Sequence record: DRR723986_11381
DNA: 52,705 nucleotides
Direction: 5' to 3' (one strand)
Under the pieces are notes generated by a model. The model saw nothing but the letters and a program-made list of their open reading frames with translations, had not been told where the DNA came from and made no database searches. The position numbers were made by a program, and so were the translations under genes. Of this stretch, positions 44 through 36,028 are shown piece by piece. The first letter of the stretch is position 1. The number at the start of each line of letters is the position of its first letter.

Positions 44-76
44 GCGGCAAAAAATTAAGCGGGAGACAGGCTGCCG

Positions 77-538
77 ATGGCTGCATTCAAATTCAGACTT
101 CAATCCGTTATCGCACTAAGAACGCGAGAACGTGACTCAGCAGCCGCAGCCTATCGCGAAATGGTCAACGCCGCTGCGGAATTGGAAGAACGAATCGCCG
201 AACTGCGAGTAGAAGTTGCAGCGCAGAAGCAAGTCCAGTCAACGTCCGCTGGTCAAACGCTCGACCCGCAACGCCATATCAATTCGCAGCGGTACGAGAT
301 GACAATCCTCCGTCAAATTGCGGAGATTCGTTCTAACCTGAATCGTGTCGAAGAAGAACGGGAAAAACGCCGCAAAGTGATGGTTAGTCGGGAGCAAGAC
401 CTTAAATCAATTGAAAATTTGCGTGAGAAACAGCGCCTCCAGTGGATCGACGAACAAAATCGCGTCGAACAACTCACCCTGGATGAATGGGCGGCGACAA
501 AGCACTGGAAGAACAATAACGGGAAGCAAACACGATGA
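77..538 (+). CDS. fliJ: Flagellar export chaperone FliJ
   Basis: 153 aa coiled-coil protein with N-terminal FKFRLQSV and C-terminal EQLTLDE, both typical of FliJ. GGGAGA RBS upstream; lies upstream of fliK. Confidence 0.85.
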   Translation: MAAFKFRLQSVIALRTRERDSAAAAYREMVNAAAELEERIAELRVEVAAQKQVQSTSAGQTLDPQRHINSQRYEMTILRQIAEIRSNLNRVEEEREKRRKVMVSREQDLKSIENLREKQRLQWIDEQNRVEQLTLDEWAATKHWKNNNGKQTR

Positions 539-1200
539 AAATGCTGGGCAAATTGTTCGTTGCATTCTGCGTTGCCACCGTTGTCGCGCAGATGATCATC
601 GCTGGGATGGCCGTTGCGAAAGGCAACGTGAATCCGGATGCGCTTTACAAGGCTCTTGCCTTGGTAAACGGTATCGATATCAGCGGTGACGAACTCAAGA
701 AGATGTTCGACGATGCAACGACAACCCCCAACCCAAAATACGAAGACGTCGAACAGGAACGAGCCCGCTTAGACATGGATTTGGTCCTCCGCGAAGAAGC
801 GATCCGAAAAGCGACTGACGAATTGCTTGCAAAGCAGGCCCAACTCCAAGCCCGTGAATCATCTTTCAAACGCCGCATGGACAAGTTCTATGAAGTGTTG
901 CAACGGCAGGAGGATAAGCTGCAAGACGAGAGCTTAAAAACCGTTCAACAGACGCTCGAATCTCTAACTGCCGACCAAGCGAAGGACCAGCTACTGAAAA
1001 TGTTCGCCGCTGGCCATCAAGACGATGTTGTCGCAATCTTTAAAGGTATGCCCCCAGACAAACGAAAGAAGATAATGGGAGAGTTTGTCGATACGGCAAA
1101 CGATGAGCCCGAGAAGCTTCACGAGATATTGATGCTCATGCGGGCTGGCGAACCGAATGCTAGCGTAATTCGCGATGCGAAGGCCGAGCAAGACCAGTAG
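535..1200 (+). CDS. Flagellar-associated MotE/FlbB/YlxF-like protein (MgtE N-terminal-like helical domain)
   Basis: N-terminal TM helix, coiled coil, then TLESLTADQAKDQL...IFKGMPPDKRKKIMGEF helical repeats. ATGA overlap with fliJ; sits in the usual position between fliJ and fliK. Confidence 0.65.
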   Translation: MKMLGKLFVAFCVATVVAQMIIAGMAVAKGNVNPDALYKALALVNGIDISGDELKKMFDDATTTPNPKYEDVEQERARLDMDLVLREEAIRKATDELLAKQAQLQARESSFKRRMDKFYEVLQRQEDKLQDESLKTVQQTLESLTADQAKDQLLKMFAAGHQDDVVAIFKGMPPDKRKKIMGEFVDTANDEPEKLHEILMLMRAGEPNASVIRDAKAEQDQ

Positions 1201-1362
1201 CCCCGGTCTGGCACGTCCACTGGCGAACCTGCGGAGCCGCAGCTAGTCGCTTGGCCCAAGCCAACTCTCCCCCTGCTGCCTGTGGTGCATTCTGCTTCAC
1301 GACAGCAAGACCGAGCAGTCCATGGAACCTGAGTTCCAGGACAAATTATGGGGGGTAGTGGC

Positions 1363-3087
1363 ATGAGAGCTAATGGCTCAATCGACACGTCAAGCTATGC
1401 GCGAGCGTCGCGAGGCGTGTATTCATTTTCTCACTCGCCAGGCGGAAACTCGAGCGGGAGCCAGATCAGTGGCGACAGCACAGAGCTTCTGTTTGAAACG
1501 TTTCTAGCCACGCCTCCAGCAGCAGTACAGCGTCCCGACGAGTCTCCGGACGATTTCAGTCCACGGGACGATGATGACGAAGGACCTGCGCTGGTCGATC
1601 GCGATCGGCCAGACAAGCACGACCGCAAACCAGAGGTCTCTGAGAAAGACACTTCTGAACCAGCCAACGCCACTGCCGAGGCCGAAGGCGAATACTCCAC
1701 GCTGTACCCAGAGCTAATCGCTACGACGCTGGCTCCCACAACTTCCTATGCAACCGATGCGCCCGTTCCGATTCAGGAAACAGAATTACAACGCGTCCAG
1801 CTCCCAAGCGAGCAACAACCCACGACCACAGCACTGGGCACGGAAACCACGTCCGATGCTCCTGCAACCGTTCGAACTGAAGTGAACACGTTGCAAGCAA
1901 AAACGGCCGAGGACCTATCGGGAGCTGAAGTGCCTTTGGAGGATTCCCAACTCCCTAACTCAACCACCCGTCCGGCACACGAACACGCTAATGAGCCTGA
2001 AGCTGTCGCGCTGACGCCAGCAGCCGAGAATGATACGCCCGACGAGGCTAACCAGGACTCACGCGGCCAGCAAGCGCCAATCGACGAACTGCCCCGCGCT
2101 AGCGAAAGCCGAGAATCGCAGAACGAGGCATCTTCCGATGTCACGAGAGCGGCTGGCGAGAAAGCCCAAGAAGACGCGTCGGCGCGTGACGAATCCCAGC
2201 GGGCGACTCAAGCCGCGCAGGAAGAAGAGCCAGCCAAGTGGTATGAACAACCAACTGAGCCGAATACCATTGCAACCACCCCAATCGGTGGCGATGACAG
2301 CTCAGATCTACCGAGCACGACTGAGCCGCCAACCTCCGAAAACTCGCTGGACGTTGACGCACCACAATCAAACGAACGCGAGTCATCGCAAGCAGCACCG
2401 ACATCCGACGATCGTACACCCGACACCGCGAACTCGCCAACTCGCAACGAGAACTCTGCCGCGGCAGCAGCTCTGCGGGCTGTAGCTGCTGGTGAAACGC
2501 CAAAGTCAGAGACATTGGGCTCACCAACTAGCCCTTCAAGGAGCGGTGCTGAGGCCCCAACTCGGCCCGTTGCATCGGCCACTAAGCCAGCGAGTACCGC
2601 GACCGCTGATTCCGCGAATCAGCCTGAGATCACACAGCAAGAACGAGTGCGATTGATTCAACGCGTGGCACGTAGTTTTTCAAGATTGGGAGCCGAAGGG
2701 GGACAACTGCATTTACGTCTCCATCCACCGCAACTCGGATCGCTGGCCGTCCGAGTGCAGGTTGAGGGTGGCTCCATGTCGGCTAAACTAACGGCCGAAT
2801 CTGAGAGCGCTCGAGAAGTCATTCTCGAAGGACTGCCCATGCTGAAGAAACGCCTGGCCGACCAAGGTGTTGAAATTTCCCAGTTTCAAGTCGACGTTTC
2901 TTCGGGTACCGACGACACCTTTACCGGCGGTAATCCAGACCAGCGGCAGTCAGAATTCCGCGAGGGTAATCGCCCACGTTCGATCCCCGCTATGGTTCGA
3001 AACAACCAAGCTCAACAAGACGAGCCGCCGCCGGTGAACGAACCTCGCCACGTCGTTACGAGCTATTCGTTGGACGTCCAAGCGTAG
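1363..3087 (+). CDS. fliK: Flagellar hook-length control protein FliK
   Basis: Long acidic Pro/Thr/Ser-rich region followed by the FliK C-domain LRLHPPQLGSLAVRV...LKKRLADQGV...F.V. Start is ATG 1363 (after GGGGGTAG) or 1348. Confidence 0.9.
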   Translation: MRANGSIDTSSYARASRGVYSFSHSPGGNSSGSQISGDSTELLFETFLATPPAAVQRPDESPDDFSPRDDDDEGPALVDRDRPDKHDRKPEVSEKDTSEPANATAEAEGEYSTLYPELIATTLAPTTSYATDAPVPIQETELQRVQLPSEQQPTTTALGTETTSDAPATVRTEVNTLQAKTAEDLSGAEVPLEDSQLPNSTTRPAHEHANEPEAVALTPAAENDTPDEANQDSRGQQAPIDELPRASESRESQNEASSDVTRAAGEKAQEDASARDESQRATQAAQEEEPAKWYEQPTEPNTIATTPIGGDDSSDLPSTTEPPTSENSLDVDAPQSNERESSQAAPTSDDRTPDTANSPTRNENSAAAAALRAVAAGETPKSETLGSPTSPSRSGAEAPTRPVASATKPASTATADSANQPEITQQERVRLIQRVARSFSRLGAEGGQLHLRLHPPQLGSLAVRVQVEGGSMSAKLTAESESAREVILEGLPMLKKRLADQGVEISQFQVDVSSGTDDTFTGGNPDQRQSEFREGNRPRSIPAMVRNNQAQQDEPPPVNEPRHVVTSYSLDVQA

Positions 3088-18963: not shown

Positions 18964-19518
18964 TTACGCGTCCTGCATCGCTTCCAATTGCTGCTTGAGG
19001 GCAGCCCGAGCGCGTGACAATCGACTGCGGACGGTGCCGATATTGATGTCCAAGATGGTCGCAATGTCTTCGTACGAAGTGCCCTCCATCTCGCGAAGGA
19101 CCAGGATACACTTGTGTTCGTCGGTCAACATGTTGAGCGCTCTGTGGACCAGAGCTACGCGTTCGCTTCGTAGAATTCGCTCGTCGGGTGCTTCGACGTG
19201 ATCTTCCGGGTCGCTTCCAGTGATCTCACGGCTCTGTTCGATCGAGAGGTCATTGCGTTTGCGACGCGCTCGACTGAGGGCGTTGTTGAAAGCGATCCGA
19301 TAGAGCCAAGTAAAGAGCTTACTGTTGCCCTGGAACGTATGGAGCTTCAAATAAGCCTGAACAAGGGTTTCCTGCACCACATCCTCCGCCTCATCATGAC
19401 TTCCAACGAATTGGAGCATGCCGTTGTATAAACGATCTTTGAAGCGATCGACCAACTCGGCGAACGCGGCCTTATCCCCGTCGAGTGTCGCCCGAATTAG
19501 TTCTTCTTCAGGTTTCAC
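18964..19518 (-). CDS. ECF RNA polymerase sigma-70 factor
   Basis: GDKAAFAELV, AEDVVQET, FTWLYRIAFN, SYEDIATILDINIGTVRSRLSRAR. GTG 19518 is the likely start. Confidence 0.92.
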   Translation of the reverse strand: MKPEEELIRATLDGDKAAFAELVDRFKDRLYNGMLQFVGSHDEAEDVVQETLVQAYLKLHTFQGNSKLFTWLYRIAFNNALSRARRKRNDLSIEQSREITGSDPEDHVEAPDERILRSERVALVHRALNMLTDEHKCILVLREMEGTSYEDIATILDINIGTVRSRLSRARAALKQQLEAMQDA

Positions 19519-19742
19519 AGAATTGGCCGCTTGATGGTCGTTACGAATTCGCCGCAGTTTGAGCCAGATACCAATAGGCGCGGAGGAAGCGGGTGACGCC
19601 AGGAAAATCCCCTGGTCGACACACGTCGCTACTATAGTGAGGGTGAGCTTGAGGAATGTCAAACACCCCCGAATGCGAATCCACGCCTGGATCGCTCCTA
19701 AGACGGCCCCGTCTCTTCATATTTCAGCAGAGCCATATCATG

Positions 19743-25245: not shown

Positions 25246-26094
25246 ATGAACGCCGAACTGGTCAAAGCACTCGTCACCCGCGGCATCGTTTACGCTCTTG
25301 CCGCGCTATCAGTCGTGATTCTGGCAGTATCTCTGTGGCACGATTTTCAACCTCGCACTGTCACAATCACCAAGGCCAGTGTAACGGTTGACGGCGACGA
25401 ACGGACTTACCGCCTGGCCGTGCCGACCGACCTAGATCTCGATCAGCCAATCCCCGTCGTCTTTGCCCTTCACGGAGCGCTGGATACCGTCGATCAGATG
25501 GCCCAGTGGACTGGCTTGGATGAATACGCGGCTGACTCTAAAGCAATCGTTTGTTATCTACAGGGTCGGTCATTGAACTGGCCACCCTACATTCCGCCCA
25601 GCAATCCTGAACACGCCGATCCGGACTTTGAATTCTTCGACAAGTTGCTTGGGCAGATATCTGCTGAGTACAACATCGATCAACGGCGAGTCTATCTAGT
25701 CGGAGTCTCGCAGGGCGGAGCGATGTCGTTGCTGTTTGCTGCTCGACGCACCGAAAAACTAGCCGCGGTTGTGAATTGCTGCGGCTGGCTGCCCAAGCCA
25801 CTCGACACCGAACTTGCCAGCGAAGCCACAGAACGTTCCAGCGAAGCCGCCGAACTTGCCAGCCTTGAATCCGATGCCGGGCACAAATGCCAGATGCTCT
25901 TCATCGTAGGATCTGAAGATGAACAAGTCGGCGTCCACCACGTTGAAGCCGCTTACGAAGCTTTCGCATCCGCTGGCTACCCATCACAGTTTCATCTAGT
26001 CGACGAGTTCGGTCATGGTTGGCCTGACGAACTCGGGATCAATGAAGTTGTATGGAATTTTCTCAGCCAGCAGACTAAGGCTGATTCCCGGTAG
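25246..26094 (+). CDS. PHB-depolymerase/LpqC-family esterase, membrane-anchored
   Basis: N-terminal TM; RTYRLAVP, PVVFALHG, GVSQGG nucleophile elbow, GSEDEQV, GHGWP. Confidence 0.82.
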   Translation: MNAELVKALVTRGIVYALAALSVVILAVSLWHDFQPRTVTITKASVTVDGDERTYRLAVPTDLDLDQPIPVVFALHGALDTVDQMAQWTGLDEYAADSKAIVCYLQGRSLNWPPYIPPSNPEHADPDFEFFDKLLGQISAEYNIDQRRVYLVGVSQGGAMSLLFAARRTEKLAAVVNCCGWLPKPLDTELASEATERSSEAAELASLESDAGHKCQMLFIVGSEDEQVGVHHVEAAYEAFASAGYPSQFHLVDEFGHGWPDELGINEVVWNFLSQQTKADSR

Positions 26095-26190
26095 CGCGTA
26101 GCTGCATCCGGTGCAGTGCAGACGCGCACAATATAGATGAACGCCAGGGACCGTCTCCGCCGGTGTCGTTGGCGGTCGCACGTGAAAACG

Positions 26191-26242
26191 AAAAAGGGCT
26201 CGCTCAGTAGCGACACTCTGTTCGCTGCTGAGCGAGCCCTTT
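26191..26242 (-). terminator. Strong intrinsic terminator hairpin (U-tract on the minus strand; may also act on +)
   Basis: AAAGGGCTCGCTCAGTAGCGA-CACTCTGT-TCGCTGCTGAGCGAGCCCTTT gives a ~21-bp stem. The minus strand continues TTTTTCGTTTT. Confidence 0.85.
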
Positions 26243-26748
26243 CCACCGTGAAAGCTGGGCCTGTTGGCTGTAAGCCGTTGTGTTGCTGCCATACTTCGGC
26301 AGCGTCGCCTCTAAGGTCACGGGGCATCCATGTTCGTGAAAATCAGCTTCGCGTCAGCGGCACAGTGGCTCAAGTACCGCCAGTCGCGATTTTCGGCAAG
26401 CGAAGTTTGAACTGCTAAGAGGTTGATCGCCCACGCACACGCGGCCAAACCAGCCGCAAGGCATCACGTTAGCAGTTCATGACTCGCTACCAAAACTGAT
26501 TGACTGGCTCGAAGGTATCTGAAAGCTTCAAAGTCTCGATCGCCCCGCTAGTGGAGGAGAATGCCACCTCTGGGACTCGACTTGATGAATTCAGATTTAG
26601 CAGGAGGAGTAGCTGGCCTTCGATTTGTTGGCTCTCAATGCTCTCAGATTTTTGAGTCGGGCGACCCAGATTCTGAACGCAATGACAACCATTCATCCTT
26701 GGTAGTGGCGACCTAGCTCCGCTGCGGGCCTCGGTATTTTGCCACGCC
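26191..26748 (-). ncRNA. Candidate sigma54-dependent structured sRNA (or small-peptide mRNA)
   Basis: Bounded by a -24/-12 promoter and the terminator above. Contains an 11-bp inverted repeat (26408-26418/26469-26479), GGA-loop hairpins and no convincing long ORF. I do not recognise it as a known RNA family. Confidence 0.4.
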
Positions 26749-26758
26749 TAATGGAGAT

Positions 26759-26775
26759 TGCACGTGCCGTGCCAA
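26759..26775 (-). promoter_or_regulatory. Sigma54 (RpoN) -24/-12 promoter
   Basis: The minus strand reads TTGGCACGGCACGTGCA against consensus TGGCAC-N5-TTGCA, with exact GG/GC spacing and one mismatch. Confidence 0.65.
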
Positions 26776-27002
26776 AAACCTCAAATTCTGATTCTAACCA
26801 ACAGTAGAGGCTGGCTTTTGCAACTTCAGTTCCCACAATACGGTATTTTAAGGGCCAGCGGCCATCACTGCGCGCGACGGGCCAAAACAGAATTCCTGGA
26901 AAACGCCCGCAGCGGCCAATCGACTGCTCCCGCAGGTCCTGGTTTTGAAAAAATGTAAATGTAAGAATTACAATCGCCGCTCGAACTCTCTTGCCCATCG
27001 AG

Positions 27003-30000
27003 ATGAATGAAGTGAATCCGAATAAAATGCTTAAATCCTTCAACCGCTCATCCGGCCCCGCACAACTTGGCCAAGCCACTTTGCTGGCATTTTCGACATT
27101 CTTCCTTTCCGCGCCGCTGCTCGCTGCCGAGCCCACCGCCGCGCAAGATCACGCTGTCGTCGAAGCGCTCCTACGGCTGCCAGGCGATGCGTTGAAGCAG
27201 AACCCGGAATCCCGACAAGCAGTCTTGCGATACCTGAAACGCAATTCAGGGACCAAGCAGTATCTTGATGTCGCAAAGAAACTGGGCGTCGCCGAACAAA
27301 CCGATGAACTTATGGAATTCATCACGTCCGGCAACGGCAATTTCGCGGCAGACGCAGTCCGTTTGCTCATGCGTTCCGGAGGCACTGAAGTACTGCGGCA
27401 AACGATTGAAGGCGATGATGCCGCCAAATCGACCGCGGCCACTCGAGCACTTTCGTTCGTCAACAACGCGCAATCACGCGAGCTTCTGAGCGAGTTGCTC
27501 AATGGAGATTACTCGACGCAGCTAAGAATTGCCGCAACCGCAGCTCTAGGTGCAAATGTTCAAGGCCAGCAGATTCTCTTGAACTTTGCGAAAGAGAACG
27601 GCGTTCCAGGAACACTGACGTTTGCGTTCTCCGAAGCTCTCCGTGGGTCGTCCAGCGAAGAAGTACGCAAAGCGGCCGAACAAGTACTTGAGCCAATCGC
27701 ATCCAAGGGAAGCGAGACAATCCCACCCGTCAAGCAGCTCGCTCGCCAACGTGGCAATGCCAAGCAGGGCAAGACTGTCTTCGATACTAACGGGACCTGC
27801 AACCAGTGCCACAAGGTAAACGGTGCGGGTAAGGAAGTGGGGCCGGACCTGTCCGAAATTGGTAGCAAACTCTCCCGCGAGGACATGTTCGTTGCAATCC
27901 TGAACCCCAACGCGGCCGTCAGTCACAACTATGAAACCTACAGCGCCCTCGACTATGACGGCAATATCATCACGGGCCTTCTGATCAACCAGAACGAGCA
28001 AGGCGTCACGATTCGCAACGCCAAAGGGATCGACCAAACGGTTGCCACAGGCGATATCGAAGAATTGCGAAAGCAAGAAACCTCTCTGATGCCAGCGGAT
28101 CTTCAGAAGCTGATGTCGCTCCAGGAACTTGTCAGTCTGGTTGATTACCTTGTTCTGTTGCGAAAGCCTGGCGAAAAAGGCTTCAATGCAATCGCCGAGG
28201 GAAACACAGAGCAGGACTTGCGCGACCCCAGCACAGCAGTGGCCGGCTTCGAAATCGCCGATGGACTGCAAGTCGAGCTGTGGGCAAGCGAGCCAATGAT
28301 GCTCAGCCCAACAAGCATCGATGTCGACCACCTCGGACGCGTTTGGGTGTGCGAAGCGGTGAACTATCGGCACTTCAGGAATGGACAGAATGAACCGCGC
28401 GAGGAAGGAGACCGAATCCTTGTCCTAGAAGACACCGATCGCGATGGGAAAGCGGATAAACGGACGGTCTTTTATCAGGGCCGCGATATCGACTCCCCAC
28501 ACGGAGTCACCGTATTGGGCGAGAGCATCATCGTATCCGCTGGCGAAAACGTGATTGTTTTCACGGACAAGGACGGAGACTTGAAGCCGGAAAGTCGCAA
28601 GAACTTGTTCACCGGAATCAGCGGCGTTCAGCACGACCATGGCATTCACGCATTCAACATTGGCCCTGACGGAAAACTCTACTTCAACTTCGGCAACGAA
28701 GGGAAACAACTAAAAGGACCGGATGGGGAAACAATTGTCGACAAGGCGGGCAATGTTGTTGACGATTCTCGAAACCCGTACCAGCAAGGCATGGTATTTC
28801 GCTGCAACCTAGACGGCAGCGATCTAGAAACGCTGGGATGGAACTTCCGAAATAACTGGGAAGTCTGCGTCGACTCCTTCGGCAATCTGTGGCAATCCGA
28901 CAATGACGACGACGGCAACCGCGGGACGCGAATCAACTTCGTCATGGAGTATGGCAACTACGGATATCGCGACGAGAAAAACGGCAACACCTGGAAGGTA
29001 GCCAGAACAGGTCTTGAGAGCGAAATCCCTCTACAACACTGGCACCTTAACGATCCTGGAGTTGTTCCCAACATTCTCCAAACCGGCGCTGGCTCGCCAA
29101 CTGGAATTTGCTTTTATGAAGGTGAGTTGCTTCCCGAAGCGTTCCGCAACCAGATTATCCACACCGACCCTGGACCAAACGTTGTGCGCGCCTACCCGGT
29201 CGAAAACTCCGGTGCCGGCTACAAAGCATCCATCTTGAATCTAGTCAAGGGAACTCGCGATCCTTGGTTCCGCCCCGTTGACGTGTGTGCCGCCCCAGAC
29301 GGTTCGTTGTTCATCGCCGATTGGTACGACCCAGGAGTTGGCGGGCACCGTATGGGAGACCCACAGCACGGTCGTATCTTCAGAATTACACCGACTGGGC
29401 ACACCGGCTACGATCTTCCAAGTTTTGATTTTGATACCGCGAAAGGGGCAGCGAAAGCACTTGCCAACGCAAACCTTGCAACACGTTTCCTAGCGCAACA
29501 AGCAATTGCTAAGATCGGTGCAGATGCAGTCGCTGAATTGGAAATCGTCGCGTCAGCATCGCAGTCCGAAGTGCAAGCTGCCCGGGCGATGTGGCAGGTT
29601 GCAGCCCACGGTTCACCCGAACAACGAACCCAGATCATTGATCAAGCCCTCAGCCACCCAAGTGCAGACTTGCGAATCACCGGCATCCGCATGGCTAGGC
29701 AACACAATGTCGACATCCCGCAAATGGTCCGACTGCTGTCGAAAGATCCATCCAGTCATGTTCGACGCGAACTGTTGGTCGCACTTCGCCACACGACAAC
29801 TCAGGACGCGGCCGAGCTATGGGTAGATCTAGCACTGCAACATGATGGCAAGGATCGATGGTACCTGGAAGCTCTTGGACTGGCGGCCGACCTGCACTGG
29901 GACGCCTGCTTTACGGCCTGGCTACAGCGAGTTGGCGACGATTGGAATACACCCGCCGGTCGCGATATCATTTGGCGTTGCCGCAGCCCCAAAGCGTGCA

Positions 30001-30128
30001 AGTACCTCACTGACATCATCCGTTCAACGGACTCAGTTGAGGAACAGTATCGCTACTTCCGCGCATTTGATTTTCACGAAGACGCCCCCAAGACGGAAGC
30101 TCTCAAGCTGTTGCTCGTCAGCCGCTAG
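27003..30128 (+). CDS. PVC-type heme-binding CxxCH protein / putative membrane-bound dehydrogenase (HEAT + cytochrome c + beta-propeller + HEAT)
   Basis: Signal peptide; CNQCH...VGPDLS...ILNPN...SLMP cytochrome domain; propeller motifs ELWASEP, GRVWVCE, GDRILVLEDTDRDGKAD, GPDGKLYF, NFRNNWE, FRPVDV..APDGSLFIADWYD. Start uncertain (26991/27003/27027). Confidence 0.9.
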   Translation: MNEVNPNKMLKSFNRSSGPAQLGQATLLAFSTFFLSAPLLAAEPTAAQDHAVVEALLRLPGDALKQNPESRQAVLRYLKRNSGTKQYLDVAKKLGVAEQTDELMEFITSGNGNFAADAVRLLMRSGGTEVLRQTIEGDDAAKSTAATRALSFVNNAQSRELLSELLNGDYSTQLRIAATAALGANVQGQQILLNFAKENGVPGTLTFAFSEALRGSSSEEVRKAAEQVLEPIASKGSETIPPVKQLARQRGNAKQGKTVFDTNGTCNQCHKVNGAGKEVGPDLSEIGSKLSREDMFVAILNPNAAVSHNYETYSALDYDGNIITGLLINQNEQGVTIRNAKGIDQTVATGDIEELRKQETSLMPADLQKLMSLQELVSLVDYLVLLRKPGEKGFNAIAEGNTEQDLRDPSTAVAGFEIADGLQVELWASEPMMLSPTSIDVDHLGRVWVCEAVNYRHFRNGQNEPREEGDRILVLEDTDRDGKADKRTVFYQGRDIDSPHGVTVLGESIIVSAGENVIVFTDKDGDLKPESRKNLFTGISGVQHDHGIHAFNIGPDGKLYFNFGNEGKQLKGPDGETIVDKAGNVVDDSRNPYQQGMVFRCNLDGSDLETLGWNFRNNWEVCVDSFGNLWQSDNDDDGNRGTRINFVMEYGNYGYRDEKNGNTWKVARTGLESEIPLQHWHLNDPGVVPNILQTGAGSPTGICFYEGELLPEAFRNQIIHTDPGPNVVRAYPVENSGAGYKASILNLVKGTRDPWFRPVDVCAAPDGSLFIADWYDPGVGGHRMGDPQHGRIFRITPTGHTGYDLPSFDFDTAKGAAKALANANLATRFLAQQAIAKIGADAVAELEIVASASQSEVQAARAMWQVAAHGSPEQRTQIIDQALSHPSADLRITGIRMARQHNVDIPQMVRLLSKDPSSHVRRELLVALRHTTTQDAAELWVDLALQHDGKDRWYLEALGLAADLHWDACFTAWLQRVGDDWNTPAGRDIIWRCRSPKACKYLTDIIRSTDSVEEQYRYFRAFDFHEDAPKTEALKLLLVSR

Positions 30129-32672: not shown

Positions 32673-35120
32673 TTACCGGATATTGAGCAACTCGTCGAAC
32701 AGTTCTTGAGTGGCCGTGATGACACGAGCGTTACTTCGATACTGGGTCGACGCAAGAACCAGATCCACCAGGTCACCACCGATGTCGGTGTTGGATAATT
32801 CCAAGGCACCAGCGACGACGGTGCCAATGCCGTTCTCACCTGGCCCGCCTTCGATGGGCAACCCCGTGTTGATACCTTGCGCGAATAGGTTTTGCCCGCG
32901 TTGCTCCAAGCCCTGCGGGTTGGTAAACCGAGCGAGTCGCATTTGACCAAGGTCGCGACTAATACCGTTACTGAAGACTCCTCGCACGGTTCCATCTTCA
33001 CCGATCACATAACTTGTCAGTGTACCGGGAGGAGAACCGTCTTGTCGAGATGCAGCCAGCGTCGCGTCGTCAGTTGCTAGACCGGAGACAGCAGAAAAAT
33101 CAATATCGAATTCCAAAGGCGACACACTTGGCAATTCATCCCGATCAATGGCGACGCGAGTGTTTGTGGCCGAGATGAAATTCCCGTTACCATCGAAGGT
33201 CAGAATCCCAGATCCCACCGCGATGTCTGCGCCTGAGCCCGACGCATTGTCGGCTGAATCCGCAAACCACCGGTAGACCGTTTCCGAGTCGTTGCGAGAT
33301 TCAAGAACCGCGGTGACTCGGGTCCGAATTGGAAGCCCGAGAGAATCGTAGGAGATGAAGTCGGCTACAGCGCTCTGCCCCTTAGCCTCTTGAACAGAGC
33401 CAAACGCGAGATTTGGGACCGTCACCGCGCCATTGGCATCTGTGACACGGAAGCTGGTTAGATCAATATCAACCGCATTGTCGACGCCGTTGTTGGAAAC
33501 GAAACGTATCTGTCCATTTTGGATATACGCTCCTGCATTGATGGTGCCACCTTCGCCAGGAATGCTGTTCACCGAGCCTGGGATCGGGTTGACTGAATCG
33601 GCTGATACCGTTTGAATCCCCATTGCTTCTTCCATGAAGCTTACGAGGTCTTGCACCGTCGATGCCGCAGTAACCTCGAAGCCCTTCGCTTCCAAGTTCC
33701 GGCCGCCCTTTCGGGCCTCAAAGGACAGGTTTCCTAGCGTGAACGGATTTGAGTAGTCCAGGCCATCGCGGCGGATCACATTGGTCAGCAGTGTATTGCT
33801 GTCGATCGTAGGCCCATCCAAATTCACAAGCTGATTGCCTGAAACGCTAAGATCACTGATCTCCGCGTCACTCTTACCGTCGGTGTAATCGACGCCAGGC
33901 GGGATCGTGTCGACTAGATAGAATGAGTTTGGATCCGTGGCCGTGTTGCGATAAATCCGAATCGAATCGTACTCGGGGAAACCACCACCCGGCGGAGGCG
34001 TTGGTGGAGTCGGCAAATTATCGAGATGGATTCGTCCATTGACGATGTTCTGCGGTCCCAGCAAGATCGATGGCCGTGATTCGGGATCCCCCGTGCGATG
34101 GTAGGTCACCATGTAGCTGTAGTTGCCATTGAGTGTCGTATCGTCCAACTGCGGGCCAGCTACCAACGAGCCGTCGTCATCAAAAGACGTTCCGGTAGGA
34201 ACCGTGTCGAGCCGGAATAGATCTGTCCCATTTGCATCGGAGCGATACACTCGAATGCTGGAGTATTCTCCGGGAGCCTCTGGCAGCGGATTGAGCGTAA
34301 TTGTATTGTCATCTAAACCGTTTCCAGCGGGAACGATAACGTCGATCGGAGTGCTCGGCGGACTCTCGTTTCCGGATGCATCTACGAACGCAAAGCTGTA
34401 CCGGTATGTGGCACCTTCGACAAGAGTTCCACTACCTTGATTGTGCGCGATGGTAACGCCGGTCGCATTTGGAGTGGAGGCTCCCGTGATTGACGTGCCA
34501 GAAGCATCAGGGCGGGGCACGGCTGAATCGCCAAGGATCGCACTTTGAATGATCTCAGCGGTGTCGGCGATATCGCCCTTGGGCGTCAACGTGCCTTCCA
34601 TCACGACATTCTGCGTTTGCTGCGCTACCGCCTCACTACCCAGCGGAATCTCTAGCGGTACAAGCTGCGTCGATTGCACTCGGAACTGATCATCGATACC
34701 GTAGCCCAACAGCCGGTTTCCAGTTGGTGTAACGAGTTGATTTTCGCTGTTGAGATTGAAAATACCACTTCGCGTGTAAAGTCGCTCACCACCCTCGCTC
34801 TGAACGATAAAGAGGCCGTCGCCTTGAATCGCCAAGTCGGAAGGACTAGAGCTGATCTGAATCGTGCCCTGTGTGAAGTCTGGCGAGATTGCGGCTACTT
34901 GCACCCCGAGACCTGTCTGCCGAGGGTCAGTACCACCGTTGGATTCTGTCGGCGCAGCACCGAGCGAAAGGGTTTGCAAGAACTGAGTAGCGAAGACAAC
35001 GTCAGAACTCTTGAAGCCAACGGTTTGAGAGTTGGCTAGATTATTACCGAGCACATCAATTTGTGTTTCGGCGGCGTTCAGTCCTGTCAGAGCAGTACTG
35101 AGAGACGAAGCTAGACCCAT
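32673..35120 (-). CDS. flgE: Flagellar hook protein FlgE (elongated)
   Basis: LSTALTGL...DVLGNNLANSQTVGFK, DLAIQGDGLF, YTRSGIF, ARFTNPQGL, GALELSNTDIGGDLVDLVLASTQYRSNARVI; lies downstream of flgD. Confidence 0.93.
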   Translation of the reverse strand: MGLASSLSTALTGLNAAETQIDVLGNNLANSQTVGFKSSDVVFATQFLQTLSLGAAPTESNGGTDPRQTGLGVQVAAISPDFTQGTIQISSSPSDLAIQGDGLFIVQSEGGERLYTRSGIFNLNSENQLVTPTGNRLLGYGIDDQFRVQSTQLVPLEIPLGSEAVAQQTQNVVMEGTLTPKGDIADTAEIIQSAILGDSAVPRPDASGTSITGASTPNATGVTIAHNQGSGTLVEGATYRYSFAFVDASGNESPPSTPIDVIVPAGNGLDDNTITLNPLPEAPGEYSSIRVYRSDANGTDLFRLDTVPTGTSFDDDGSLVAGPQLDDTTLNGNYSYMVTYHRTGDPESRPSILLGPQNIVNGRIHLDNLPTPPTPPPGGGFPEYDSIRIYRNTATDPNSFYLVDTIPPGVDYTDGKSDAEISDLSVSGNQLVNLDGPTIDSNTLLTNVIRRDGLDYSNPFTLGNLSFEARKGGRNLEAKGFEVTAASTVQDLVSFMEEAMGIQTVSADSVNPIPGSVNSIPGEGGTINAGAYIQNGQIRFVSNNGVDNAVDIDLTSFRVTDANGAVTVPNLAFGSVQEAKGQSAVADFISYDSLGLPIRTRVTAVLESRNDSETVYRWFADSADNASGSGADIAVGSGILTFDGNGNFISATNTRVAIDRDELPSVSPLEFDIDFSAVSGLATDDATLAASRQDGSPPGTLTSYVIGEDGTVRGVFSNGISRDLGQMRLARFTNPQGLEQRGQNLFAQGINTGLPIEGGPGENGIGTVVAGALELSNTDIGGDLVDLVLASTQYRSNARVITATQELFDELLNIR

Positions 35121-35262
35121 CGCGAATATCCCATCCTTGCGCACCGCCGCACGCATGCACCCACCGTTGAATCAGCAGCCTTGCTGGTTCAACGAGTAGT
35201 GTTGGAGAGATTTTGCCGGATGCCCCCGCAGGCAACCCAGCGCGTCTAATGCTAGCGTGCGG

Positions 35263-35703
35263 CTAATTTTCGACGATTTCACGGATATTGCTGATATCGA
35301 CCACTGAGTCTCCAATGTGAACTGATACTTTCCGAATACTCGGATCTTCTGGGTCGGTCTGTACAGATACGCGGTCTACGATGCCTTCTACATCGTTTGC
35401 GTTGTTGTCCAGAGCTGAGACTTGCTTGCCGATCATCGAACTTGCCATCGACAATTCCTGTCCGACAGCCAACGTCGACAACGTTTCGGTAAGCTGTGTT
35501 GTCGAACCGATCTCGCGAATTTGCCCAATCTGCTCAAGCATTTGAGCGTTATCCATTGGGTTGAGCGGATCCTGGTTCTGGAGTTCGGTGATCAGCAGAC
35601 CGAGAAATTCATCTAGATCAACATCGCTGAGCGAATTGCCGGTAAGCCCACCTCCGCCGGAAGCGCTGGGACTGGACGAGCCAACTCCTGGAATACTCGA
35701 CAT
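35263..35703 (-). CDS. flgD: Flagellar hook capping protein FlgD
   Basis: FLGLLITELQNQDPLNPMDN...ASSMIGKQV; GAGG RBS upstream. Confidence 0.95.
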   Translation of the reverse strand: MSSIPGVGSSSPSASGGGGLTGNSLSDVDLDEFLGLLITELQNQDPLNPMDNAQMLEQIGQIREIGSTTQLTETLSTLAVGQELSMASSMIGKQVSALDNNANDVEGIVDRVSVQTDPEDPSIRKVSVHIGDSVVDISNIREIVEN

Positions 35704-36028
35704 CTGCTTTGCCTCGATTTAGGGTACCACTTCGTGGGCGTCACACTCGCTTGAGCGACGAATCGCGCGGTAAGTTACTGCGCTACGCACCTCTGCTGTA
35801 GTGCCGAGCAAGAGAGCACGTCAATTGCAGTTATTGCGTTGGAGCTTCGCAAACGAACTGCCTCACAAGAATTCTCGGCTCCAAGGGCCGCCGTCGCTTA
35901 CAGGAAACTTTGCCTGACCTGTAAAAAACGCTCCTTCGTGGCGTGCCCAGCTTGCAACAGAGCTGCCGAAGCCTCGTTTGCAATTGCTAGCACTGGGGAG
36001 GTCATGCCTTCCCGACAGAACGCATCAA

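Follow-up and report, generated by a model that had tools for sequence, protein, structure and literature searches.

The described systems closest to the gene reported here are bacterial small RNAs (sRNAs) whose transcription depends on sigma-54. CrcZ and CrcY of Pseudomonas are CbrB- and sigma-54-dependent sponge RNAs, of which CrcZ displays repeated A-rich motifs, and the Qrr RNAs of the Vibrionaceae, which need Hfq, are the dedicated output of a single enhancer-binding protein (bEBP), LuxO. The LuxO site upstream of the qrr genes is given as TTGCAWWWTGCAA (PMC10162802). For GlmY and GlmZ of the Enterobacteriaceae, which are under the control of GlrR, one account describes sigma-54 promoters with activator sites upstream of the sRNA gene (PMC3045617), and another has GlmY working through its structure as a protein decoy (PMC7073468). 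Here we report a gene of this kind in a 52,705-nucleotide stretch of DNA (record DRR723986_11381; the whole stretch is referred to as the window). Positions 26186-26973 of its minus strand form a complete, stand-alone non-coding regulatory RNA gene that belongs to an undescribed family, present in single copy in many Pirellulales. The gene architecture is conserved, as is the fold of its 3' module (a three-way junction built on helices P1 and P2, followed by a terminator), and there is no conserved reading frame. A sequence-only reading of the window had pointed to a hidden minus-strand unit running from a sigma-54 promoter to a terminator; conservation boundaries, co-occurrence of the promoter, covariation and the strand asymmetry of wobble pairs all agree with it. 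We regard it as very probable that this is a non-coding RNA gene of a conserved family, driven by sigma-54 and an enhancer, a judgement that concerns the gene and not the way its RNA acts.

The resemblance to the qrr genes is in architecture. Each gene stands alone, with a -24/-12 promoter preceded by a palindromic activator site and with an intrinsic terminator at its end; by analogy, the RNA described here may likewise serve as the dedicated output of a single bEBP. The layout of the palindrome found here also matches that of the LuxO site, with two A/T-rich half-sites 3 bp apart. However, there is no homology in sequence or structure between the two (Rfam scans were negative). The palindrome is 15 bp long with TTGYAA/TTACAA half-sites, and the RNA is 2-5 times longer than Qrr, contains a three-way junction and occurs in one copy per genome. 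Moreover, whereas Qrr is Hfq-dependent, Hfq was not found in five out of five relatives of the window. With GlmY/GlmZ the sRNA has in common a sigma-54 promoter and upstream activator sites, and a decoy role is one of the readings kept below, but again there is no homology, and for the RNA here an overlapping sigma-70 promoter was not seen. CrcZ and CrcY are similar in being sigma-54-driven RNAs of several hundred nucleotides for which protein titration is proposed; in contrast to CrcZ, no repeated motif is enriched here (93 GGA motifs against 109 expected) and there is no Rfam match. The likeness to CsrB, RsmY and RsmZ consists of the 5-8 CsrA proteins encoded by the relatives and of one or two GGA sites in loops, but there is no multi-GGA array, the promoter is of a different type, Rfam gives no match and the GGA sites are not family-wide.

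The Rfam scan that had been suggested as a check returned only chance matches, consistent with an undescribed RNA. Across window positions 25900-27200 the best match to Rfam 15 reached 29 bits against a gathering score of 79, with the top matches all on the terminator hairpin, and a scan of seven homologous loci gave one chance match (E = 0.68). Because it has no Rfam match and differs in size, fold and enhancer, the sRNA falls outside the Qrr, GlmY/GlmZ and CrcZ families; it is a new enhancer- and sigma-54-dependent family of the same kind, and a member of none of them. No paper on planctomycete sRNAs was found in the literature searched, and the terms sRNA, small RNA and non-coding were all missing from the searched text of a 2025 survey of sigma-54 regulons that covers the Planctomycetia (PMC12316311).

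The gene occupies the gap between two plus-strand genes, one for an esterase (25246-26094) and one for a 1045-residue DUF7133/cytochrome c/HEAT protein (26991-30128). A search with the esterase identified an uncultured Pirellulaceae assembly (locus L001) as the closest relative found, its flanking esterase protein being 60% identical. Comparison of the two gaps revealed near-perfect identity from the sigma-54 motif through to the T-tract of the terminator, with little in common upstream of the promoter except the enhancer block and two short runs. Of the unit itself, 90 nt at the 5' end and 300 nt at the 3' end hardly differ, and the middle is interrupted by indels of 2, 1, 1, 5 and 7 nt. When the unit was compared by BLAST with 401 genomes of L001's family, homologues were found in two pieces, a 5' element and a 3' module, lying much nearer each other than they do in the window. 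R1, a covariance model built on the 3' module, matched 42/49 genomes in a genus sample of L001's lineage and 35/151 in a family sample. Once rebuilt from 54 sequences (R2), it matched 72/151 genomes in an order sample, 9/151 in a class sample and 3/151 in a phylum sample, and throughout there was nearly always one match per genome. A closer inspection showed that the convincing class and phylum matches were all in genomes already contained in the family or order samples, and R2 found nothing convincing outside L001's order in either. Three matches from outside the order (L091, L092 and L095, 28.9-33.8 bits) were set aside, having neither paired P1 strands nor promoter nor palindrome and being driven by the terminator. 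All of these genome sets are samples and many of the assemblies are incomplete, and a missing match is to be read as not found in those searched, not as absent.

Promoter, enhancer and structure were counted over 74 non-redundant loci. The sigma-54 promoter proposed from the sequence is present on the minus strand, as TTGGCACGGCACGTGCA (Table 1); the sigma-54 consensus is TGGCAC-N5-TTGCW. A relaxed -24/-12 pattern, [CT]GG[CT][AG][CT]-N5-NTGC, was found at 72/74 loci in the 480 nt preceding the RNA, on the RNA's own strand, and its strict form at 53/74. One of the two loci missed, L044, has no upstream sequence. In control DNA, made up of the remaining 188,211 nt of the fetched loci, the relaxed pattern occurs at a rate of 0.05 per 480 nt and the strict one at 0.006 (5 strict occurrences, both strands). 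The motif is therefore beyond chance, given a strict control rate of about 0.006 per 480 nt and its presence at 53 of the 74 homologous loci. The family consensus is TTGGCACG-N4-NTGCW, in which GG and TGC were required by the search pattern. In more distant relatives the BLAST similarity starts at query position 41, which corresponds to about 26745 in the window. Each of five relatives' genomes encodes one rpoN, and the three out of three inspected for the Sigma54_activat family contain 12-20 matches. Neither rpoN nor bEBP genes were among the window's 38 large open reading frames (ORFs) scanned with Pfam.

The palindrome upstream of the promoter, TTGTAATTCTTACAT, also recurs in the family. 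With up to two substitutions, TTGTAA-N3-TTACAA was found at 67 of the 70 loci with at least 200 nt of upstream sequence, compared with none in the 188,211 nt of control DNA, its centre lying 81-235 nt (median 128) upstream of the -24/-12 motif. The 15-bp consensus is TTGYAA-WWY-TTACAA, and in the window an additional TTACA half-site adjoins the palindrome at 26954-26958. It is presumed to be the binding site of a bEBP; judged from the sequence, palindrome and promoter together have the standard layout of an enhancer-dependent promoter. The genomes of three relatives (G382, G001 and G044; loci L097-L111) were searched for the exact form TTGYAA-N3-TTRCAA, which occurs 4-7 times per genome compared with one for the reversed control. 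For TTGCAA-N3-TTGCAA the figures are likewise 4-7 per genome and one for the reversed control, mostly inside long ORFs. Among the 16 sites in total, 15 loci were examined, and a sigma-54 motif accompanied the exact palindrome at the sRNA gene alone (2/15). No sigma-54 motif was found within 450 nt of the other exact palindromes (13/14 examined; two matches to the relaxed pattern were not strict motifs), and 11 of these 13 sit inside long ORFs. Thus, no regulon emerged.

Two further observations concern the enhancer. At locus L036 the enhancer looks as though it had undergone tandem amplification: TGTAA half-sites recur every 15 nt, five in succession before the full palindrome, between about 112 and 195 nt upstream of the promoter. 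In the window a sigma-70-like promoter on the plus strand (26945-26974; TTGAAA-18-TACAAT, 10/12 matches) is directed at the divergent DUF7133/cytochrome c gene. The palindrome of the sRNA gene overlaps with the -10 hexamer of this promoter, and binding of an activator could therefore also affect this neighbour.

For the predicted 563-nt transcript the folding energy is -231.5 kcal/mol, compared with -191.2 +/- 7.2 for shuffled sequences (z = -5.6). In the alignment of the 3' module from 74 sequences, 96.8% of 2259 cells hold standard pairs, compared with 80.7% after column shuffling (0/500 shuffles reach the observed value) and 35-50% with slid partners. Changes on both sides were seen for 28/32 pairs, including 6/6 in hairpin H1. 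Hence both checks in relatives proposed by the sequence-only reading, by BLAST and by covariation, speak for the gene, as does the conservation of its promoter, since the helices covary strongly and the -24/-12 motif accompanies nearly every copy. The share of paired cells is 99.8% for P1 and 97.1% for P2. These two helices are near-invariant, with few compensatory changes and five U-A to U-G changes. Enforcing P1 led 56/73 sequences to fold as a two-hairpin junction, a count lowered by the pattern also matching inside H2 in some sequences. H1 and H2 were not recovered by MAFFT with RNAalifold because their loop lengths differ; H1 was supplied by hand and the sequences were realigned with Infernal. 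The fold also distinguishes the strands. G-U pairs are consistent with the minus strand only. On the opposite strand the model matches through its terminator part (positions 109-150) and nowhere else, with the exception of one weak full-length match (L009, 25.7 bits) that overlaps the terminator. In L007 and L014, H2 is replaced by long insertions (about 40 and 100 nt) which leave the flanking invariant strands untouched, and the position of H2 therefore tolerates expansion.

As for the terminator, the hairpin of about 21 bp that had been noticed at 26191-26242 has 21 pairs and one C.A mismatch, and its longer U-tract does face the minus strand, with a tail of TTTTTCGTTTTC compared with only TTTCC on the plus strand. 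A simple terminator scan detects just the inner 5-pair part, again on the minus strand. Between L001 and the window an A-U pair of the stem is exchanged for U-A, and over the 74 sequences both sides vary in 16/16 pairs. Situated 97 nt past the esterase stop codon, the hairpin could act in both directions and may also stop the converging plus-strand esterase operon. It could be argued from this that there is no separate gene, the hairpin serving only to terminate the plus-strand purB-esterase operon and the promoter-like motif being due to chance or otherwise used. We consider this very unlikely. The better U-tract is on the minus strand, promoter, palindrome and RNA module occur together in about 70 loci, and the hairpin accompanies the RNA module regardless of the downstream gene or its orientation, adjoining unrelated genes that include same-strand ones such as terC.

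Nor does the unit appear to encode a protein. An ATG-initiated ORF of 69 codons (26487-26696) starts 52 nt after the predicted transcription start, and L001 has a 73-codon ORF from the same ATG, which raises the alternative of a sigma-54-dependent small-protein gene, made up of this ORF or of a short one inside the 3' module. However, the window and L001 ORFs differ by frame-shifting indels and have only QQIEGQ in common, and the region is missing from most family members. Substitutions track helices and not codons, and invariant blocks are not spaced by multiples of three. The spacing of the P1 strands is spread evenly over the three residues modulo 3 (18/20/14), and therefore no frame is conserved. 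Pfam families were found in none of the four ORFs of the gap, the 69-codon ORF included. A small-protein gene is very unlikely, the least probable explanation of all, and the proposal of a non-coding planctomycete RNA outside Rfam is borne out, convincing covariance-model matches having been found, among the genomes searched, in one order only.

Table 1. Coordinates of the sRNA gene and its parts in the window.
Feature	Position	Strand	Basis or remark
Upstream activating sequence, palindrome TTGTAATTCTTACAT (minus-strand reading)	26959..26973	.	198 nt upstream of the -24 motif
Sigma-54 type -24/-12 promoter TTGGCACGGCACGTGCA	26759..26775	-	GG and GC spaced as in -24/-12 promoters; pattern search
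Predicted transcription start	26748	-	Promoter geometry, 12 nt after the C of the -12 GC; inference
Conserved 5' element GUGGC-AAAAUACCGAGGCCCGCAGCGGAGCUAGGUC-GCCAC	26705..26745	-	Closing helix around an invariant core including the AGC-GGA-GCU hairpin
Lineage-specific expansion	26351..26704	-	Alignment to L001; family length comparison
ACAUGGAUG motif, best CsrA-like site	26325..26333	-	Just 5' of helix P1
Conserved three-way-junction core	26246..26322	-	Alignment, covariation, constrained folding
Helix P1, CCGUGA / UCACGG	26322-26317 / 26251-26246	-	
Internal loop (AUCUUAG/UUUU), then helix P2, G.GGC with GCCC		-	
Hairpin H1, loop GAAGUAU	26285-26303	-	
Hairpin H2	26266-26276	-	
Intrinsic terminator: A-rich lead (GGAAAGGG), 21-pair hairpin, then UUUUUCGUUUUC	26186..26245	-	Sequence; covariation

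The two ends of the RNA have evolved differently. The 5' element listed in Table 1 is present in the clade of L001, in whose genus the 5' domain reads GAGGCCCGCAGCGGAGCUAGG and is held within the closing helix; this helix becomes GCGAGC/GCUCGC in L009, L020 and L041. Much of the order has CGACCCAG near the 5' end instead, followed by a long hairpin, and GGCCCGCAGCGGAGC also counts among the clade-specific 5' motifs. The 3' junction, in contrast, is kept throughout the family, even at the sequence level, while the 5' domain is replaced between clades. An idea that the 5' motif repeats the 3' strand of P2 was dropped after more sequences had been read. In run X1, which is DNA of an algal metagenome, a 574-nt contig shares only the 31-nt core of the 5' element (window 26705-26735) and has unrelated flanks; going by this match, it probably represents a further member of the family, one whose body differs.

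The estimated length of the RNA ranges from 146 to 576 nt, with a median of 246 nt (72 loci). The size of about 550 nt first proposed therefore fits the window, with its predicted 563 nt, but not the family: the window is an outlier because of a lineage-specific insertion of about 350 nt, and only L001 and L043 have a comparably long unit. This expansion holds an ACCA-AGGAUGAA-UGGU hairpin, CUCCUCC at 26603-26609 and 26553-26559, the unconserved 69-codon ORF and a hairpin formed by the perfect 11-bp inverted repeat that had been noted at 26408-26479, TGAACTGCTAA / TTAGCAGTTCA (26408-26418 and 26469-26479), which encloses GCGGC...GCCGC. At the two positions where the window and L001 differ in this repeat, the minus strand keeps its pairing through G-U, whereas the plus strand has A.C mismatches. 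All the features of the gap listed by the sequence-only reading, namely promoter, hairpin, inverted repeat and GGA stems, were thus found where it had placed them.

The layout of the gene suggests how it would operate. A bEBP would bind the palindrome TTGTAATTCTTACAT, about 200 bp upstream, and activate sigma-54 RNA polymerase parked on TTGGCACGGCACGTGCA. Transcription would then run from about 26748 to the intrinsic terminator at about 26190, yielding an RNA of about 560 nt. We infer that this RNA is trans-acting and forms the output end of a dedicated relay from bEBP to sRNA, like LuxO-Qrr or GlrR-GlmY. The genes next to the family members vary and come in mixed orientations: HEAT/cytochrome c proteins (4 loci at the cut-offs used, plus the window's DUF7133 protein), UDP-glucose dehydrogenase (4 loci), TPR proteins (about 13), terC (5), hydrolases and transporters. 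With such varied neighbours and orientations, and no bEBP among them, a trans-acting product is suggested. In one clade (L073, L074, L075, L078 and L083) the sRNA gene lies about 600-700 nt upstream of a same-strand terC-family gene, which is maybe a coincidence; terC genes elsewhere are often riboswitch-controlled.

Our tentative preference, to which we give slightly less than even weight, is that the RNA acts by base-pairing through an exposed, clade-specific 5' motif, with the invariant 3' junction as a platform for stability or for a chaperone. Because the 5' domain is replaced between clades and the 3' junction is kept, the former may be seen as the part that gives specificity (a seed domain), attached to a conserved platform, and for base-pairing we infer a somewhat higher probability than for a pure protein decoy. 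The latter would have the near-invariant junction (P1, the internal loop, P2 and the H1 loop GUAUGG) titrate or recruit an RNA-binding protein, the 5' domain being accessory. There are precedents in 6S RNA, which acts on RNA polymerase, and in GlmY, which acts on RapZ. It is sequence and not just pairing that is kept in P1, P2 and the loops across an order, a pattern that a protein-recognition site shows more typically than a scaffold does, and a constant junction with a 5' domain swapped between clades, together with the failure to find Hfq in five out of five relatives, would fit a decoy as well. Nonetheless, a candidate protein did not turn up, the locus is not consistently accompanied by any gene, and the short conserved 5' motifs (CGACCCAG or GAGGCCCGCAGCGGAGCUAGG) resemble seeds, and we therefore rate a decoy as rather unlikely.

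A more specific form of protein binding had been put forward at the outset, namely that the RNA is a CsrA/Rsm sponge, sequestering CsrA through GGA motifs in loops as CsrB and RsmZ do. The GGA motifs in small stems on which this rested are present, as AGCGGAGCT at 26723-26715, ACCAAGGATGAATGGT at about 26703-26688 and CACG..CATGGATG..CGTG at about 26338-26318. Each of the five relatives has 5-8 CsrA paralogues (PF02599 matches over the cut-off), and csrA genes are reported in a 2025 survey to be enriched behind predicted sigma-54 promoters in Planctomycetia (PMC12316311). The best CsrA-like site is ACAUGGAUG, which we presume to correspond to the CsrA consensus from systematic evolution of ligands by exponential enrichment (SELEX). 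A GGA within 16 nt 5' of P1, in the form ACA-N-GGAUG, is found in 53/74 loci, and a GGA triloop hairpin (AGC-GGA-GCU or GGU-GGA-ACC), the stem of which covaries by eye, in part of the family. However, GGA is not enriched, either in the window RNA (4 against 8.5 expected) or in 18 homologous RNAs together (93 against 108.8), and the sites are only partly conserved: the one before P1 is missing in 21 loci, order-level sequences often have a CAUG-type sequence without GGA in its place (by eye), and many order-level members lack both sites (by eye). CsrB and CsrC, by comparison, carry 13-22 sites (PMC6546359). Moreover, no GGA occurs where the RNA is most strongly conserved, and there is no match to the Rfam CsrB/Rsm families. 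A CsrB/RsmZ-like sponge is therefore quite improbable, and titration of CsrA as the mode of action is to be doubted to the same extent. There may still be a CsrA link of lower valency, which is kept because the relatives have 5-8 CsrA paralogues and no Hfq was found. The genomes concerned (G001, G044, G215, G360 and G382) combine 5-8 CsrA with no detectable Hfq, an unusual set of RNA-binding proteins; the search for Hfq (PF17209) gave 0/5 in these relatives and detected it in control genomes.

A hint of expression comes from a seawater metatranscriptome, one RNA library among the 21 runs listed, which was consulted as Logan contigs. A single 520-nt contig matches window positions 26236-26501 and 26692-26719, with 205 other letters replacing the 190-nt variable middle. 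An Illumina adapter directly follows 26719 and neither flanking gene is reached. The contig fits a discrete, abundant RNA in a relative, but contigs show neither strand nor level and it could be derived from DNA. Parts without cover in run X18 are uninformative, and runs X19 and X20 have only short L001-like contigs.

Several points weigh against the reading given here, or reduce the weight of the evidence for it. Hfq, the usual chaperone of base-pairing sRNAs, was not found in five out of five relatives. No target, protein partner or cognate bEBP was found: the 15-nt complement of the 5' core has an exact match only at the sRNA gene itself, the 10 sites with one mismatch have no position or gene in common and give no recurrent target, and the 132 flanking ORFs scanned include no bEBP or two-component protein. 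About half of the order's genomes were missed by the model, and either the family is patchy or copies are lost to the model or to incomplete assemblies. The alignment of 74 sequences was fitted to the model, which favours structure, and support for P1 and P2 is weaker because these helices are almost invariant and rest mainly on conservation. The RNA evidence amounts to one Logan contig from a relative, uninformative on strand, level and true ends. The contig ends at 26719, 29 nt within the transcript as predicted, and the start at 26748 is accordingly provisional.

Other genes of the window were noted in passing. Flagellar genes of FliJ/FliK-like and FlgE/FlgD-like types are found at 59-3084 and 32676-35718, and an ECF-type sigma factor is encoded at 18967-19716.

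Beyond the single locus, it is conceivable, although unlikely, that the Pirellulales, which appear to lack Hfq, possess an order-wide relay in which one bEBP acts via sigma-54 on one sRNA and the junction of that RNA docks an RNA-binding protein, possibly a CsrA paralogue of altered specificity. If so, the relay RNA would represent a new class of protein-binding riboregulator and offer a first way into post-transcriptional control in planctomycetes. Being single-copy and widespread in an environmentally abundant order that apparently lacks Hfq, the family could show how riboregulation proceeds without that chaperone. The palindromic enhancer, the -24/-12 promoter and the structured RNA with its terminator are three direct experimental handles, and with enhancer, promoter and RNA fold so defined, riboregulation in planctomycetes becomes directly testable.

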